Part shown: positions 45,812 through 62,624 of the stretch, piece after piece
How positions within the stretch are numbered: position 1 is the stretch's first letter
Layout: each line of letters starts with the position of its first letter
Assembly (NCBI GenBank): GCA_035259205.1
Contig: DATFWO010000234.1
Span: 3,947 to 67,946, forward strand
Length of the DNA: 64,000 nucleotides
Reading direction: 5' to 3'
From: Burkholderiales bacterium
GTDB taxonomy: Bacteria > Pseudomonadota > Gammaproteobacteria > Burkholderiales > SG8-41
Made by a program: the position numbers and the translations under genes
Notes under the pieces: model-generated
The model's database searches: none
Seen by the model: the letters and a program-made list of their open reading frames with translations, nothing else
What the model was told of the DNA's origin: nothing

Positions 45812-46333
45812 ATGGCGCAAAGCAGTCAGAAATTCATCGCACGCAACCGCGCACCGCGCGTACAGATCGAATACGACGTCGAGGTATACGGTTCGGAAAA
45901 GAAGGTCCAGCTGCCCTTCGTCATGGGAGTCATGTCGGACCTTTCGGGCAAGCCGGCAGATCCGCTGGCACCCGTGGCAGATCGGAAATTCCTCGAGATC
46001 GACGTCGACAATTTCGACGATCGGCTGAAGTCGATGAAGCCTCGCGTCGCGTTTCAGGTCCCCAACACCCTGACCGGTGAAGGAAACGTGAGCGTCGACA
46101 TCACCTTCGAGAGCATGGACGATTTCACGCCCGCCGCGATCGCGAAAAAGGTCGGTGCCCTCAACAAGCTGCTGGAAGCCCGCAGCGAGCTTGCCAATCT
46201 GCTCACGTACATGGATGGCAAGACCGGGGCGGAAGATCTGATCGCCAAGGTCATGAAGGACCCGAACCTGATGAAAGCGCTGTCGTCTGCGCCCAAGCCT
46301 GCGGAAGGCGGCTCGGAAGGCAAAGCCGGCTGA
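45812..46333 (+). CDS. tssB: T6SS contractile sheath small subunit TssB (VipA)
   Basis: RVQIEYDVEVYG..LPFVMGVMSDLSGK..IDVDNFDDRL signature. AAGGAG RBS. Confidence 0.95.
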   Translation: MAQSSQKFIARNRAPRVQIEYDVEVYGSEKKVQLPFVMGVMSDLSGKPADPLAPVADRKFLEIDVDNFDDRLKSMKPRVAFQVPNTLTGEGNVSVDITFESMDDFTPAAIAKKVGALNKLLEARSELANLLTYMDGKTGAEDLIAKVMKDPNLMKALSSAPKPAEGGSEGKAG

Positions 46334-46370
46334 GAGCCGCGCGCGTGAACTTACTGTAATGAGGTGAAAT

Positions 46371-47861
46371 ATGGCTGAAGCTCAGAAAGAAGTTCAGGGA
46401 CAGGTCGGCGAGGTTCAACTCGATGAGTTCTCCGCGCTCCTCAAGAAGGAATTCAAGCCGAAGACCACGCAGGCGAACGAGGCGGTCGAGCGGGCGGTGC
46501 GGACCCTCGCGGAGCACGCCCTGGCCGAAACCAAGCTCATTTCGTCCGACGCGATCAAGTCGATCGAGGCGATCATCGGGGCCATCGACCGGAAGTTGAC
46601 CGAGCAGGTGAATCAGATCCTGCATCACGAGGATTTCCAGAAGCTGGAAGGGGCCTGGCGCGGATTGCACTATCTCGTGAACAACACCGAGACCGACGAG
46701 ATGCTGAAGATCCGGGTGATGAACATCAGCAAGCCGGAGCTCGCCCGTACCCTCAAGCGCTACAAGGGTACCGCGTGGGACCAGAGCCCGATCTTCAAAA
46801 AGGTGTACGAGGAAGAGTTCGGCCAGTTCGGCGGCTCGCCCTTCGGCTGCTTCGTCGGAGACTATCACTTCGACCAGACCCCGCCCGACGTAGAGCTGCT
46901 CGGCGAGATCGCGAAGATTTCGGCATCGGCGCATGCGCCCTTCATTGCCGGGGCTTCCCCGACCGTAATGCAGATGGAGTCGTGGCGCGAGCTGAGCAAT
47001 CCGCGCGATCTGACCAAGATCTTCAGCTCGCCGGAATATGCCCCGTGGCGCTCCCTGCGCGACTCGGAGGATGCCCGCTACATCGGCCTTGCGATGCCGC
47101 GCTTTCTGGCGCGCGCGCCGTACGGGGCGAAAACCAATCCGGTCGAAGCCTTCAATTTCGAAGAGGATGTCGAGGGCTCGCAGCACGAGCGCTATACGTG
47201 GGCGAATTCCGCCTACGCGATGGGCGTCAACATCAACCGGGCGTTCAAAGAGTACGGGTGGTGCACGCGTATCCGCGGTATCGAATCTGGCGGTGCGGTG
47301 GAGAACCTGCCGTGCCATACGTTCCCCACCGATGACGGCGGGGTCGATATGAAGTGCCCCACCGAGATCGCAATCAGCGACCGACGCGAGGCGGAGCTGG
47401 CGAAGAACGGGTTCATGCCCCTCATCCACCGGAAGAACTCCGATTTCGCCGCATTCATCGGAGCGCAATCGCTCCAGAAGGCGACGGAGTACCAGGATCC
47501 CGACGCGACCGCCAACGCAAATCTCGCGGCGCGCCTGCCGTATCTGTTCGCCACGTGCCGTTTCGCTCACTACCTCAAGTGCATGGTCCGGGACAAGGTC
47601 GGATCATTCAAGGAACGCGATGAGATGCAGCGCTGGCTCCAGGACTGGATCCTGCAGTACGTCGACGGCGACCCGGCCAACTCGTCCGAGCAGACGAAGG
47701 CGCGCCGGCCCTTGGCTGCGGCCGAGGTGATCGTCGAGGATGTCGAAGGGAATCCCGGCTATTACACGTCCAAGTTTTTCCTGCGTCCGCACTACCAGCT
47801 CGAGGGTTTGACGGTGTCGCTGCGTCTGGTTTCCAAGCTTCCGTCCGCCAAGGCGGCCTGA
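46371..47861 (+). CDS. tssC: T6SS contractile sheath large subunit TssC (VipB)
   Basis: 496 aa. ILHHEDFQKLEGAWRGLHYLV, LAMPRFLARAPYG, and a C-terminal FFLRPHYQLEGL signature. Confidence 0.95.
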   Translation: MAEAQKEVQGQVGEVQLDEFSALLKKEFKPKTTQANEAVERAVRTLAEHALAETKLISSDAIKSIEAIIGAIDRKLTEQVNQILHHEDFQKLEGAWRGLHYLVNNTETDEMLKIRVMNISKPELARTLKRYKGTAWDQSPIFKKVYEEEFGQFGGSPFGCFVGDYHFDQTPPDVELLGEIAKISASAHAPFIAGASPTVMQMESWRELSNPRDLTKIFSSPEYAPWRSLRDSEDARYIGLAMPRFLARAPYGAKTNPVEAFNFEEDVEGSQHERYTWANSAYAMGVNINRAFKEYGWCTRIRGIESGGAVENLPCHTFPTDDGGVDMKCPTEIAISDRREAELAKNGFMPLIHRKNSDFAAFIGAQSLQKATEYQDPDATANANLAARLPYLFATCRFAHYLKCMVRDKVGSFKERDEMQRWLQDWILQYVDGDPANSSEQTKARRPLAAAEVIVEDVEGNPGYYTSKFFLRPHYQLEGLTVSLRLVSKLPSAKAA

Positions 47862-55742: not shown

Positions 55743-57815
55743 ATGGACACCGCAACGGGAAAACATCGCTTTGCGCAGATCAATACCCAGCTGGGGGCCG
55801 ATGTCCTGCTGCTTGCGCGCGTTTCGGGCAAGGAAGAGCTGGGGCGCCTGTTCGAGTACGACCTCGAGCTCCTGAGCGAGCGCGCCACGATCAAGCCCGA
55901 GGACCTCCTCGGCACGAACGTGACCTTGATGTTCGAAACCGAGGATCACAGCGCGCCGCGCTACCTGAACGCCTACGTCACCCGCTTTTGCGAGGCGGGC
56001 GAGAAGCAAAGCGCTGCGTTTTCCTCGGGGCACGCTTACGCCTACCGCGCGACCTTGCGCCCATGGCTGTGGTTCGCGACTCGCCGCTCCGACTGCCGCA
56101 TCTTCAACGACAAGTCGGTGCCCGACATCGTCAAGGAAGTGCTGGGTATCTATGGCGGACAGATATCCGACAAGCTTTCGGGCACGCATCATCCGTGGAA
56201 GTACTGCGTGCAGTATCGCGAGACCGATTTCAATTTCGTCAGCCGCCTGATGGAGCACGAGGGCATCTATTATTACTTCGATCACCAGAACGGAAAGCAC
56301 CTGCTGGTGCTCGCGGATTCTTCGAGCGCGCATGCGCCACACCCGAAGTTCAGGACCTTTGCGTTCCATCAGCCCGGACGGGAGGACGTTTTCGACCGCG
56401 ACTACATCAGCGAGTGGATGGCGACGACCGGCGTGCAGGCGGGCAGGTACCTGCTGAAGGACTACGACTTTTACCGGGCTCGCGCCGTGGAAGGGGTTGC
56501 GGCCCAGCCGCGCTCCCACACCTTCGGCGATTTGGAGATGTACGACTACCCGGCCGCCGCGCTGGACGTGGCAGGCGCGGAGTCGGGTTCCGATCGCAGC
56601 TCAGGCTACGCCAGCGCGCGGATGGAGGAGCTGCAGAGCCAGTACCGCGTGTTCGAAGGGACGGGAAACGCGCGCGGACTCGAGGTGGCGCGCCGCTTCA
56701 CGCTCACGGACCACCCGCAGCGGGCCTATAACGCCGATTACGTGGTCACATCGGCGTCGCTGGAGGCGAAGGTCAACGAGTTCAGAAGCGGCGGCGGCGA
56801 TGCCGAATTCAAGGTGACCTTCACCTCGATCGCAGCCAGCCAGGCATTCCGGCCGCAGCGGCTCACGCCGAAAAGCGTGATTCAGGGTACGCAGACCGCG
56901 CTCGTGGTGGGCAATGGTGAAATCGATCCCGACAAGCACGGGCGCGTGAAGGTTCAGTTCCACTGGGATCGCAAAGGCGCAACGTGCTGGGTACGGGTGG
57001 CGCAGCTCATGGCTGGAAAGAGCTGGGGCGCCATGTTTCTCCCGCGCGTCGGCCAGGAGGTGATCGTGGACTTCCTGGAAGGCGATCCCGATCGGCCGAT
57101 AGTGACCGGCGTCATTTACAACGGCGTGGCCAAGCCGCCGTACGAGCTCCCGGGAGAGAAAACCAAGTGGACGATCAAGACCAATTCCTCTGAGGGCGGC
57201 GGCGGATTCAACGAGCTTCGCTTCGAGGACAAGAAGGGCTCGGAGCAGATCTTCATGCACGGGGAGAAGCAGCTCGACCTGCGCATCAAGAAGGACCGCC
57301 TCGAATTCATCGGGGAGAATTCGCATCACATCGTCAAGAAGGACCGCTACGAGAAGGTGGAAAAGGACCAGCATCTGGCGGTGAAGGGCGACCAGAACGA
57401 AAAGGTCACCGGCACGGCATCGCTCAAGATCGATCAGAACCTCCAATACAAGGTCGGAATGAAGAGCGCGCTCGATTCAGGGCAGGAGATCCACCTCAAG
57501 GCGGGGATGAACATCATCCTGGAGGCGGGCGTGCAGATCTCCCTCAAGGTCGGGGGCAACTTCATCAACATCACGCCCGCCGGCGTGGACATCCAGGGCA
57601 TCCTGACGAAGATCAACTGCGGCGGCTCGGCAGGCAGCGGCTCGGGTTCGTCGCCTGCGGCGCCGACGGATCCGAAGGAAGCCGACGACGCCAAGGCCGG
57701 ATCGAAGGACGATGTGCCGCCGAAGCCCAAGCCGCCCCAGGCAAAGACATACAGTCCCAAGGCAGTATCGCTGAAACTGGCGGCCCAGAGCGGCGCGCCG
57801 TTTGTAGACGTATGA
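55743..57815 (+). CDS. vgrG: T6SS spike protein VgrG (TssI), no C-terminal toxin domain
   Basis: gp27/gp5-like regions (GRVKVQFHWDR...WVRVAQLMAGKSWGAMFLPRVGQEVIVDFLEGDPDRPIVTG) and beta-helix repeats. Gly/Ser- and Lys/Pro-rich tail of about 70 aa. Confidence 0.93.
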   Translation: MDTATGKHRFAQINTQLGADVLLLARVSGKEELGRLFEYDLELLSERATIKPEDLLGTNVTLMFETEDHSAPRYLNAYVTRFCEAGEKQSAAFSSGHAYAYRATLRPWLWFATRRSDCRIFNDKSVPDIVKEVLGIYGGQISDKLSGTHHPWKYCVQYRETDFNFVSRLMEHEGIYYYFDHQNGKHLLVLADSSSAHAPHPKFRTFAFHQPGREDVFDRDYISEWMATTGVQAGRYLLKDYDFYRARAVEGVAAQPRSHTFGDLEMYDYPAAALDVAGAESGSDRSSGYASARMEELQSQYRVFEGTGNARGLEVARRFTLTDHPQRAYNADYVVTSASLEAKVNEFRSGGGDAEFKVTFTSIAASQAFRPQRLTPKSVIQGTQTALVVGNGEIDPDKHGRVKVQFHWDRKGATCWVRVAQLMAGKSWGAMFLPRVGQEVIVDFLEGDPDRPIVTGVIYNGVAKPPYELPGEKTKWTIKTNSSEGGGGFNELRFEDKKGSEQIFMHGEKQLDLRIKKDRLEFIGENSHHIVKKDRYEKVEKDQHLAVKGDQNEKVTGTASLKIDQNLQYKVGMKSALDSGQEIHLKAGMNIILEAGVQISLKVGGNFINITPAGVDIQGILTKINCGGSAGSGSGSSPAAPTDPKEADDAKAGSKDDVPPKPKPPQAKTYSPKAVSLKLAAQSGAPFVDV

Positions 57816-57872: not shown

Positions 57873-58415
57873 ATGGTCGGCCCTGACGCGATCGGCACGT
57901 TGACGCAGCTCCTGTGGATGTCTCCGCAGGACAAGGTTTACGCTCTCCTCGATGGCGCGAGCATTCCGAGCCTGCTGGAGCGCCTGTACGGCGAAAAACG
58001 CCCGCCGTTCGAGTGCCTGTTTCCGGGAGAGCTGGAGCCGGACATGGCGGAAGTCGCGCCCTATCTCGTTGAGCTCGATCGCGGAAGCGATTTTGCCGAG
58101 TGGGTCATGGGGCAGGGGTGGGGCAATCATTGGGGAATCTTTGCGGTATCGCAGGCGGACCTGAGGACGGTGTATTTTCACCTGCGCACCCTCAGCGTCG
58201 TGTATACGCCCGAAAGCAGGCCGATGCTCTTCCGCTACTACGACCCGCGGGTCATGCGACTATTCCTGACGACCTGCGCGCCCGAGCAGATCAAACAGCT
58301 GTTCGGTCCGGTCGAGCGGTTCGTGGCCGAAGGCGAGACTGCGACGGCAGCGCTCACGTTCACGCACGTAAACGGCGAGCCTCAAACGGGCACGCGCCAG
58401 ATACCTCTGAGATGA
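57873..58415 (+). CDS. DUF4123 domain protein (T6SS effector adaptor/chaperone family), short 180-aa form
   Basis: VYALLDGASIPSLLERL...FECLFPGELEPDMAEVAPYLVEL...GIFAVS...HLRTL...MLFRYYDPRVMRLFL matches the DUF4123 pattern. Immediately downstream of vgrG. Confidence 0.8.
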   Translation: MVGPDAIGTLTQLLWMSPQDKVYALLDGASIPSLLERLYGEKRPPFECLFPGELEPDMAEVAPYLVELDRGSDFAEWVMGQGWGNHWGIFAVSQADLRTVYFHLRTLSVVYTPESRPMLFRYYDPRVMRLFLTTCAPEQIKQLFGPVERFVAEGETATAALTFTHVNGEPQTGTRQIPLR

Positions 58416-59179
58416 TGCTTATATTCCGCGAAGAACAACTCCGCGCTTTTCAGAGTGCGTCACAGGCGAACTTCTGTCGCCGGCTGCTGCGCAACGTATG
58501 CGAGGAATTTCCGGACCGGTTGAAGATCTTCGGCGAGCCGGCGATCTCGGCGATGGTGAGCCTCGGGCTCGATCGCGCGAAGGCGCGTGGACTGGAATCC
58601 GAGGAGGCCGTAATGCGCCATCTCGGCATGATGATCCTCTTCGGAAGCTACTGGGAGAGCGATCCGCAGCTTCCCTGGGTAAAGCAATTCCTCGGACCGG
58701 CCGACGCCGCGACGGCGGAGCGCATGACGCAATTGTGGGAGCAGGCAAAGGTGGTCCGCCAGCGGATCATGGGACCCGACGACGGACTCTACCTTGCAGC
58801 CCTGCGCAGCATTGAAGGCAAGACGGTGGAAGACCTGACCAAATTTGCCAGCCGCTCCCACCGCGACCTGCTGATTCAGATTGCGGCAATGTATCCGCGC
58901 AAGTTCACCGAAGCGGGGGAGGCTGCTTTCGCGAACTGCACGCGGCTCGCGGTCGAGGCGTGCCGCCCGTTCGACCTGATGGACCGCTGGTCGGTCGTGC
59001 TGATGGTGGAGTTCATGCTTCTTTTTGGCGCCGGTTTCCTGAACGATCCCCTTTACGCCTGGGCGACGGAGGCGCTGAAGGACCCGCAGTGCGAGGGAGT
59101 CGATCAGAAGCTCGACCGCCTCCTCAAGGCGGCGCAGGATAAAGTCATATCTCGTACGGTCGGATCGCGCGCGAGCTGA
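58412..59179 (+). CDS. hypothetical protein with an internal two-fold duplication; candidate VgrG/DUF4123-dependent cargo (or immunity) protein
   Basis: Met105 of ORF 58100..59179, with an ATGA overlap to the DUF4123 stop. 255 aa, predicted all-helical, no signal peptide or TM segment. I recognise no family. Confidence 0.6.
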   Translation: MMLIFREEQLRAFQSASQANFCRRLLRNVCEEFPDRLKIFGEPAISAMVSLGLDRAKARGLESEEAVMRHLGMMILFGSYWESDPQLPWVKQFLGPADAATAERMTQLWEQAKVVRQRIMGPDDGLYLAALRSIEGKTVEDLTKFASRSHRDLLIQIAAMYPRKFTEAGEAAFANCTRLAVEACRPFDLMDRWSVVLMVEFMLLFGAGFLNDPLYAWATEALKDPQCEGVDQKLDRLLKAAQDKVISRTVGSRAS

Positions 59180-59387
59180 AGCCGGGCTGCAAGCGGCCCC
59201 GTGCTTTGTTTCACATCGGCCTGGCTGTTGAATTTCGAAAAGACACGCTTGGCAGCATGCGCCGCCGCATGTCCGGCTCCGTCCGCACCGATTTCGATCG
59301 CAGCGGCCGTACCATCGTCCTCAATCGGTGTAGTATTAGCACGAGTGAGGGAGGTTTCTCCGTGAGACCTGCCAAAGAGGAGGGGCC

Positions 59388-62234: not shown

Positions 62235-62624
62235 CTAGGGAATCATTTCGGTCGTCTGGCCGGGAAATGCGACCGAAATCACGCCGCCCCAGACACACAT
62301 CAGCTTCGACGTGTTGTTCAGCGAAGGCTGATTGGCCAGCGGCACCGTGGGCGAGCCGGGCGCCCATGGTGCGGGGGTATTCGGGATACACGGCATCGGC
62401 GTCAGAACCCCCATCGCGGCGGCGGTCGCCGATGCAACAGTGGGATTGGCTATGCTCGAGCACACGCCGAACGGCATGACGTTCACCATGGAAATGTGAT
62501 CCATGATATTGGCGGCCGGCTGATTGCTGGTGAGGACGCGGTTGATGGGCAACACGACGAAGATGCTCGGGGCTGCGCCAAAACTGCACTGCAGCACCGC
62601 GCCGTTGCAAACGTGTAATGGCAT
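62235..62624 (-). CDS. DUF4280 domain protein (PAAR-like spike-tip family)
   Basis: VCNGAVLQCSFGAAPS..., ANIMDHISMVNVMPFGVCSS.ANP.VASATAAAMGVLTPMPCIPNTPAPWAPGSPTV..., and KLMCVWGGVISV..PGQ match the DUF4280 pattern. Confidence 0.85.
   Translation of the reverse strand: MPLHVCNGAVLQCSFGAAPSIFVVLPINRVLTSNQPAANIMDHISMVNVMPFGVCSSIANPTVASATAAAMGVLTPMPCIPNTPAPWAPGSPTVPLANQPSLNNTSKLMCVWGGVISVAFPGQTTEMIP

Follow-up and report, generated by a model that had tools for sequence, protein, structure and literature searches.

[quoted passage not shown] A first-pass annotation had put X forward as the dedicated cargo of this cluster, with an extension of the adaptor or an immunity protein as fallbacks. In DUF4123 (Tap) proteins, the helix-turn-helix tail of VgrG is bound by an alpha/beta N-lobe, which is conserved and about 177 residues long, and the effector by a variable helical C-lobe; sometimes the lobes are split over two genes, as in TecT/co-TecT (PMC11582642). 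Likewise, the cryo-EM structure of Tap3-Tke5 revealed an alpha/beta N-domain and a five-helix-bundle C-domain (PMC12909789). From the computational analysis reported below, we consider it likely that the DUF4123 protein and X are the two parts of a split T6SS adaptor of the Tap type, in which X would be the detached, duplicated effector-binding half and no secreted toxin.

Organization of the locus

Within the window, i.e. the whole 64-kb stretch of DNA that was analysed, a canonical T6SS cluster spans 37.6 to 62.6 kb (Table 1). The first-pass annotation was right about the gene order (vgrG, the gene for the 180-aa DUF4123 protein, the 255-aa ORF) and its coordinates. The gap between the vgrG stop codon and the DUF4123 gene measures 57 nt, and the DUF4123 stop codon TGA (58413-58415) overlaps the ATG of X (58412-58414), resulting in the ATGA previously noted there (58412-58415). 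This overlap probably couples translation of X to that of DUF4123. A second ATG, at 58415-58417, is the X start that matches the alignment of homologues ('MIVIR').

Table 1. Features of the T6SS cluster discussed in the text (positions refer to the window).
Feature	Position	Strand	Basis
T6SS core: TssK, TssL, TssM, TssA, TssB, TssC, Hcp, TagJ/ImpE, TssE, TssF, TssG, ClpV; followed by vgrG
vgrG, spike protein, 690 aa	55743-57815	+	Pfam Phage_GPD, Phage_base_V, Gp5_trimer_C; E 2e-91
VgrG C-terminal tail (...YSPKAVSLKLAAQSGAPFVDV / ...LKLAAQSGAPFVDV), presumed docking site of the DUF4123 N-lobe	57750-57812	+
DUF4123 protein, 180 aa, Tap adaptor N-lobe alone	57873-58415	+	PF13503, E 5e-33
X, 255 aa, all-helical; proposed free-standing duplicated Tap C-lobe, putative effector-recognition subunit	58412-59179	+
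X repeat 1, residues 3-121	58418-58774	+	hhalign to repeat 2
X repeat 1 motif, FGSYWESDPQLPW	58640-58678	+
X repeat 2, residues 132-250	58805-59161	+	hhalign to repeat 1
X repeat 2 motif, FGAGFLNDPLYAW	59024-59062	+
Gap after X, 208 nt	59180-59387	none	terminator-like hairpin at 59184-59199
Glycine-zipper protein, 331 aa	59388-60383	+	N-terminus Sec-signal-peptide-like by eye
Fusion of TssB-like and TssC-N-terminal-like parts, 525 aa	60465-62042	+
DUF4280 (IglG-like) PAAR-like protein	62235-62624	-	PF14107, E 7e-34
TPR protein	beyond the DUF4280 gene, running off the window end

The first-pass annotation had seen no PAAR-toxin or similar candidate in the cluster. This has to be amended for the PAAR-like DUF4280 protein encoded on the minus strand, the probable spike tip of the vgrG/DUF4123/X module. 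No other effector candidate was found downstream in the window. The latter, together with the position of X directly 3' of DUF4123, which is the usual place of an effector, speaks for X being cargo that the short adaptor loads onto VgrG. On the other hand, no small immunity-like gene comes next. Instead, the following gene lies 208 nt away, past a terminator-like hairpin, and its product is seemingly exported by Sec.

This neighbour, the glycine-zipper protein, contains two segments of the Rick_17kDa_Anti type and has a repeat tail rich in Pro, Gln and Met (PQQPVMMPQQPMMAPQQPVM...). Despite its location inside the T6SS cluster, the gene adjoins X in other loci only rarely (1 match). It was rejected as a cargo candidate in view of its Sec-signal-like N-terminus, as judged by eye, and of this non-conserved adjacency. 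The 525-aa fusion combines a TssB/VipA-like part (residues 34-142) with a TssC/VipB N-terminal domain (218-513) and lacks the C-terminal gpW/gp25-like domain. The canonical TssB/TssC pair is present in the window as well (45812-47861). Homologues of the fusion occur in 18 of 82 X loci, where they are often divergent from vgrG or beside DUF4280.

X is an all-helical, duplicated protein of a large family

From the letters alone, X had been described as consisting of two homologous halves that share the core FG..(F/W)..DP...(P/A)W, with no recognised family and no transmembrane segment, and each of these points held up. The halves are 26% identical over 87 residues in BLASTP (E 3e-7), and a profile-profile comparison (hhalign with a 138-sequence family alignment) aligned them over 118 columns at a probability of 100% and an E-value of 1.4e-39. 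The shared core agrees with the family consensus LGSxFDxDPQxPWA, the most conserved motif of the family, of which each repeat carries one copy. The window's X retains nearly all near-invariant family residues, with a tryptophan at position 81 where the family has phenylalanine. Searches of Pfam, NCBIfam and PDB sequences yielded no match to X (in NCBIfam, none at E up to 1), the only hit being DUF2806 with an E-value of 0.065, under its cut-off. A convincing transmembrane segment was not found either: the sole hydrophobic stretch (residues 193-211, Kyte-Doolittle 1.7) is the conserved core helix of repeat 2. An AlphaFold2 model of X alone (pLDDT 81) is composed entirely of helices, and a Foldseek comparison of this model with the PDB, as the first-pass annotation had suggested, returned nothing with an E-value below 1, the Tap3 C-domain included. 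Sequence similarity between X and the Tap3 C-domain was likewise not found.

Word-indexed searches for homologues of X gave only 7 and 26 matches and made the family falsely look rare. An exhaustive profile search, in turn, collected 6081 cluster representatives with E-values of 1e-3 or lower, 2259 of which stayed at or below 1e-10. Almost all of them are about 250 aa long, and every one is named "hypothetical" in its source. None of the 6081 representatives matches Pfam, NCBIfam or PDB. Across many phyla, X is conserved at 25-30% identity. An identical X is encoded on four other metagenome contigs, each time directly 3' of a 180-aa DUF4123 gene, and the one contig that extends downstream has the 331-aa gene and the VipA/VipB fusion. 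One protein (P0031) harbours three X repeats, and extra single-repeat X-like genes are found 3' of the two-repeat X in L001 (3672-4028), L022, L031, L041 and L042. In the window, a six-frame scan with the X profile did not find a second copy.

Some single-chain DUF4123 proteins carry X repeats at their C-terminus

The 180-aa DUF4123 protein is readily recognized by PF13503 (E 5.3e-33, 114 bits against a cut-off of 25.8, residues 22-142) and matches the Tla1 family of NCBIfam weakly (E 8e-10, profile positions 14-149 of 245). It has no match among PDB sequences, and its link to Tap3 is seen at the fold level only. Its modelled alpha/beta domain stops at about residue 165, and the protein is devoid of a helical C-lobe of its own.

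Such a lobe is found in relatives of the protein, and it is homologous to X. In one DUF4123 protein of 459 aa (P0151), a match of the exhaustive search, the chain continues into both X repeats. When 120 relatives listed for P0151 were each scored with the X profile, both repeats were found fused to DUF4123 in P0151, P0174, P0175 and P0179 (442-459 aa), among the matches listed. About 55 DUF4123 proteins of 272-353 aa, again among the matches listed, have a single X repeat, which directly follows the N-lobe and reaches the C-terminus (positions 2-117 of the X profile, E 1e-8 to 1e-43). The unit at the C-terminal end of these ~300-aa proteins is repeat 1 of X. About nine further proteins of roughly 435 aa, among the same listed matches, combine one detectable X repeat with additional sequence. 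One fused adaptor, in L084, resides in a full T6SS context with ClpV, Hcp, VgrG, FHA, PAAR, the fused adaptor and a 501-aa protein. These fusions support the fallback of the first-pass annotation, according to which X could be an extension of the adaptor, and they argue against X as cargo. As a separate observation, many N-lobe-related DUF4123 proteins have an FHA domain (PF00498, PF16697) in place of the X-type C-lobe, including P0240, P0247, P0249 and P0256; in others the fusion partner is TPR plus methyltransferase, or a Tsi6-type domain.

We also modelled the window's DUF4123 protein and X as one artificially concatenated chain with AlphaFold2, using an alignment that included the natural fusions. 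The model is compact (pLDDT 93.3, pTM 0.87), with disorder at the junction (169-177) alone. Its sole significant PDB match was Tap3 (chain 9r8g_B, E 3.8e-6), with 302 aligned columns on the 290-residue chain and a TM score of 0.63 normalised to Tap3. Since X alone did not match the fold of the Tap3 C-domain significantly, the match of the concatenated model may be driven mainly by the N-lobe. For the identity of X as a C-lobe, the sequences of the fusions are hence stronger evidence than the fold.

X loci across phyla

When a single genome of each species was scanned with a 30-sequence subset of the X family, 179 loci were confirmed, of which 80 were kept, almost all of them from metagenome-assembled genomes. 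They stem from taxa including Planctomycetota, Competibacteraceae, Acidobacteriota, Nitrospirota, Desulfobacterota, Bacteroidota, Verrucomicrobiota, Myxococcota and Nitrosomonas. The ORFs of these loci were called and then searched with the window's own proteins. Of the 61 loci in which 3.5 kb or more of sequence precedes X, 47 have a DUF4123 gene and 46 a vgrG gene upstream on the same strand. This answers two checks proposed at first pass: homologues of X do recur downstream of DUF4123 and vgrG, and they are not found mainly outside T6SS loci. A strict tie of X to DUF4123 is countered by the remaining 14 of the 61 loci, which have no DUF4123 upstream.

Typically, VgrG is followed by DUF4123, and X and variable genes come afterwards; the interval between DUF4123 and X is either empty or filled by a PAAR protein of ~166 aa, DUF4280 or a GNAT-like protein. 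DUF4123 proteins beside a free X have a median length of 182 aa, which corresponds to the N-lobe alone, and the 180 aa of the window's protein likewise equal the length of the published ~177-residue N-lobe. About 5 related loci have DUF4280 in the interval before X. As a side observation, a GNAT-like gene (~153 aa, FYERMGF motif) occupies the position held elsewhere by PAAR, between DUF4123 and X, in seven loci: L022 (3852-4313), L023 (2193-2654), L034, L036, L037, L054 and L075.

The VgrGs of related X loci (L006-L080) share the C-terminal tail motif LKxAAQSG(T/A)PFCE(K/I)CE. The window's VgrG, ending in ...AAQSGAPFVDV, has the motif and lacks both cysteines, whereas most relatives keep the pair. 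A single cysteine is present in the tail of L001, the closest relative of the window. In the window, loss of the cysteine pair coincides with the absence of a leader-bearing effector (see below).

A variable toxin slot follows X in related loci

Whereas X itself is conserved across many phyla, the truly variable slot of these loci is the next gene. Genes directly 3' of X in related loci encode proteins of about 120 to 750 aa from varied families. Their Pfam domains comprise nucleases and deaminases (MafB19 and YwqJ deaminases, HNH), peptidases (M91, reprolysin-like, C39-like, Prok-JAB) and lipid-acting domains (Lipase_3, phospholipase-like), and many have no Pfam match. These findings, too, count against X as cargo, and X displays neither a catalytic motif nor a match to a toxin family or fold. 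In its favour, P0097 and P0129 are X proteins with a C-terminal extension, so X can share a chain with a toxin-type domain. On balance, with X conserved across phyla, placed upstream of the toxin slot, fused to DUF4123 elsewhere, devoid of a toxin fold and without an immunity neighbour, we did not uphold the proposal of X as dedicated cargo and regard it as improbable.

The other alternative offered at first pass, immunity, is more improbable still. Some immunity proteins are small soluble helical repeat proteins, and X is such a protein encoded in a T6SS effector region. However, X precedes the toxin genes instead of following them, and one and the same family is found whatever the toxin type (deaminase, HNH, peptidase, lipase), in front of many unrelated families. 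Besides, immunity function is at odds with the fusions to DUF4123, and the window holds no toxin to neutralise.

The toxins encoded after X have a common N-terminal leader of ~35 low-complexity residues with 2-4 cysteines, which often starts with M-C, has K-x-x-P and ends in [ST]-x-x-C-P. Examples are found in L008 (8785-9279), L011 (8791-9387), L025 (8781-9338), L084 (7362-8867) and about 35 other loci. A C-P dipeptide within the first 70 residues is present in 41 of 67 post-X genes, as compared to 68 of 706 background genes (odds ratio 15, p 1e-21), and its position in the post-X genes clusters at residues 23-36. Among ~800 genes, a leader profile, itself trained on the first gene after X, matched only the first (28), second (1) and third (1) genes after X. 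The fused adaptors of L084 and of Geomonas azotofigens (L083) likewise precede leader-bearing genes; in L083, the gene next to a single-chain DUF4123 protein with an X-type C-lobe is phospholipase-like and has the leader.

P0097 combines X with a further domain, which shares 48% identity (E 6e-48) with that portion of the L031 effector which starts immediately after its C-P leader. Because the H-x-H of the JAB-like motif is missing from it, this toxin-type domain of P0097 may have decayed. Together, the leader-bearing toxins after X and the P0097 fusion suggest that X and the effector associate physically, with the leader as the most likely handle.

These data also bear on the possibility that X is a spike-module accessory with another partner, for example the PAAR/DUF4280 tip, the VgrG tail, or the N-lobe to which it would be a chaperone. 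PAAR or DUF4280 genes often lie immediately 5' of X, also in a few of the 14 loci without DUF4123 (L033, L040, L066); the window retains X and DUF4280 without an effector; and the published split system has TecT bound to a PAAR extension. Against this stand loci such as L025, L056 and L068, in which X is paired with a leader-bearing toxin with no VgrG or DUF4123 nearby and no adjacent PAAR, and the fusion of X to a toxin-type domain at the position of the leader, which indicates the effector as the partner. We therefore deem an accessory role unlikely, albeit less so than cargo or immunity, and retain the split adaptor as our preferred reading.

The proposed client is missing from the window

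The toxin gene seen 3' of X in related loci is absent from the window. A leader-bearing ORF was not found in any frame of the 64 kb, the leader profile giving one spurious off-frame match inside vgrG. In L001, whose X is 57-58% identical to the window's X, the genes after X begin with an X-like one of a single repeat. Next come genes for a leader-bearing protein of 154 aa and a protein of 200 aa, further small genes and one for a Lipase_3 protein, and then DUF4280 and a TssB/C-like fusion. This island is missing from the window. Judged by its sequence, the window's adaptor looks intact. As no leader-bearing gene follows X, either its client is encoded elsewhere in the genome or it was lost and the adaptor is idle.

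Discussion

The present analysis points to X as part of an adaptor. In the proposed mechanism, the DUF4123 protein would be the N-lobe, bound to the upstream VgrG at its C-terminal tail, a contact we infer from the lobe architecture of Tap proteins (PMC11582642). X would be the helical C-lobe, present as a separate, tandemly duplicated polypeptide that packs on the N-lobe and whose surface recognises the effector, presumably via the leader. The usual client would be a polymorphic toxin encoded directly 3' of X and equipped with the cysteine-containing C-P leader. A role of X in effector binding or export is thereby deduced from its synteny with leader-bearing toxins and from the P0097 fusion.

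The bilobed logic of the DUF4123 protein and X is that of the Tap/Tec adaptors (Tap-1, Tap6, Tap14, Tap3, Tla1), which contact VgrG through an alpha/beta N-lobe and the effector through a helical C-lobe, are encoded 3' of vgrG like the window's DUF4123 protein and contain PF13503; a model of DUF4123 plus X matches one of them, Tap3 (9r8g_B). In contrast to these, the C-lobe of the window would be a separate gene and duplicated (about 2 x 120 aa as opposed to a five-helix bundle), with a conserved motif of its own (LGSxFDxDPQxPWA) and a sequence dissimilar to the Tap3 C-domain. Moreover, its clients are apparently small toxins with a short leader, unlike the MIX, Rhs or Tle effectors known to date. 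By analogy, TecT/co-TecT of Pseudomonas aeruginosa, which exports TseT and is a split DUF4123 adaptor according to Colautti et al. (PMC11582642), is a functional precedent for the candidate split adaptor of the window. By its published description, it comprises an N-lobe-only DUF4123 protein and a second protein with an effector-binding role, as proposed here for X. The two systems differ in that TecT docks on a PAAR extension, whereas the upstream partner in X loci is a VgrG with a conserved tail, and in that X is a duplicated repeat.

MIX, FIX, RIX, WHIX and prePAAR are recognised as shared N-terminal features on otherwise unrelated toxin domains. The leader of the post-X toxins resembles them in this respect, and we take it to be set apart from them by its ~35 residues, its low complexity and its not being a folded domain. 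It may thus represent an undescribed T6SS effector marker, as far as sequence can tell. More tentatively, and with somewhat less than even confidence, the X repeat could be an undescribed adaptor module that reads this leader as a peptide-like export tag for VgrG-loaded effectors. If this is true, the leader would be carried by hundreds of otherwise unrelated small toxins in largely uncultured lineages (Planctomycetota, Acidobacteriota, Competibacteraceae, Nitrospirota, Bacteroidota and others). The leader cysteines and the cysteine pair of the VgrG tail (PFCExCE) might even share a metal or a disulfide link.

In summary, the present work removes the window's 255-aa protein from the list of toxin candidates, so that effectors of this bacterium should be sought elsewhere in its genome. 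It would assign a large family without a Pfam entry the role of the effector-binding half of DUF4123 adaptors and extend the sole published split adaptor, TecT/co-TecT, to many phyla. The C-lobe family and its Cys-Pro leader are of greater interest than the window's X gene itself: a gene that follows X and encodes a Cys-Pro leader could serve as a simple marker for new T6SS toxins in uncultured bacteria.
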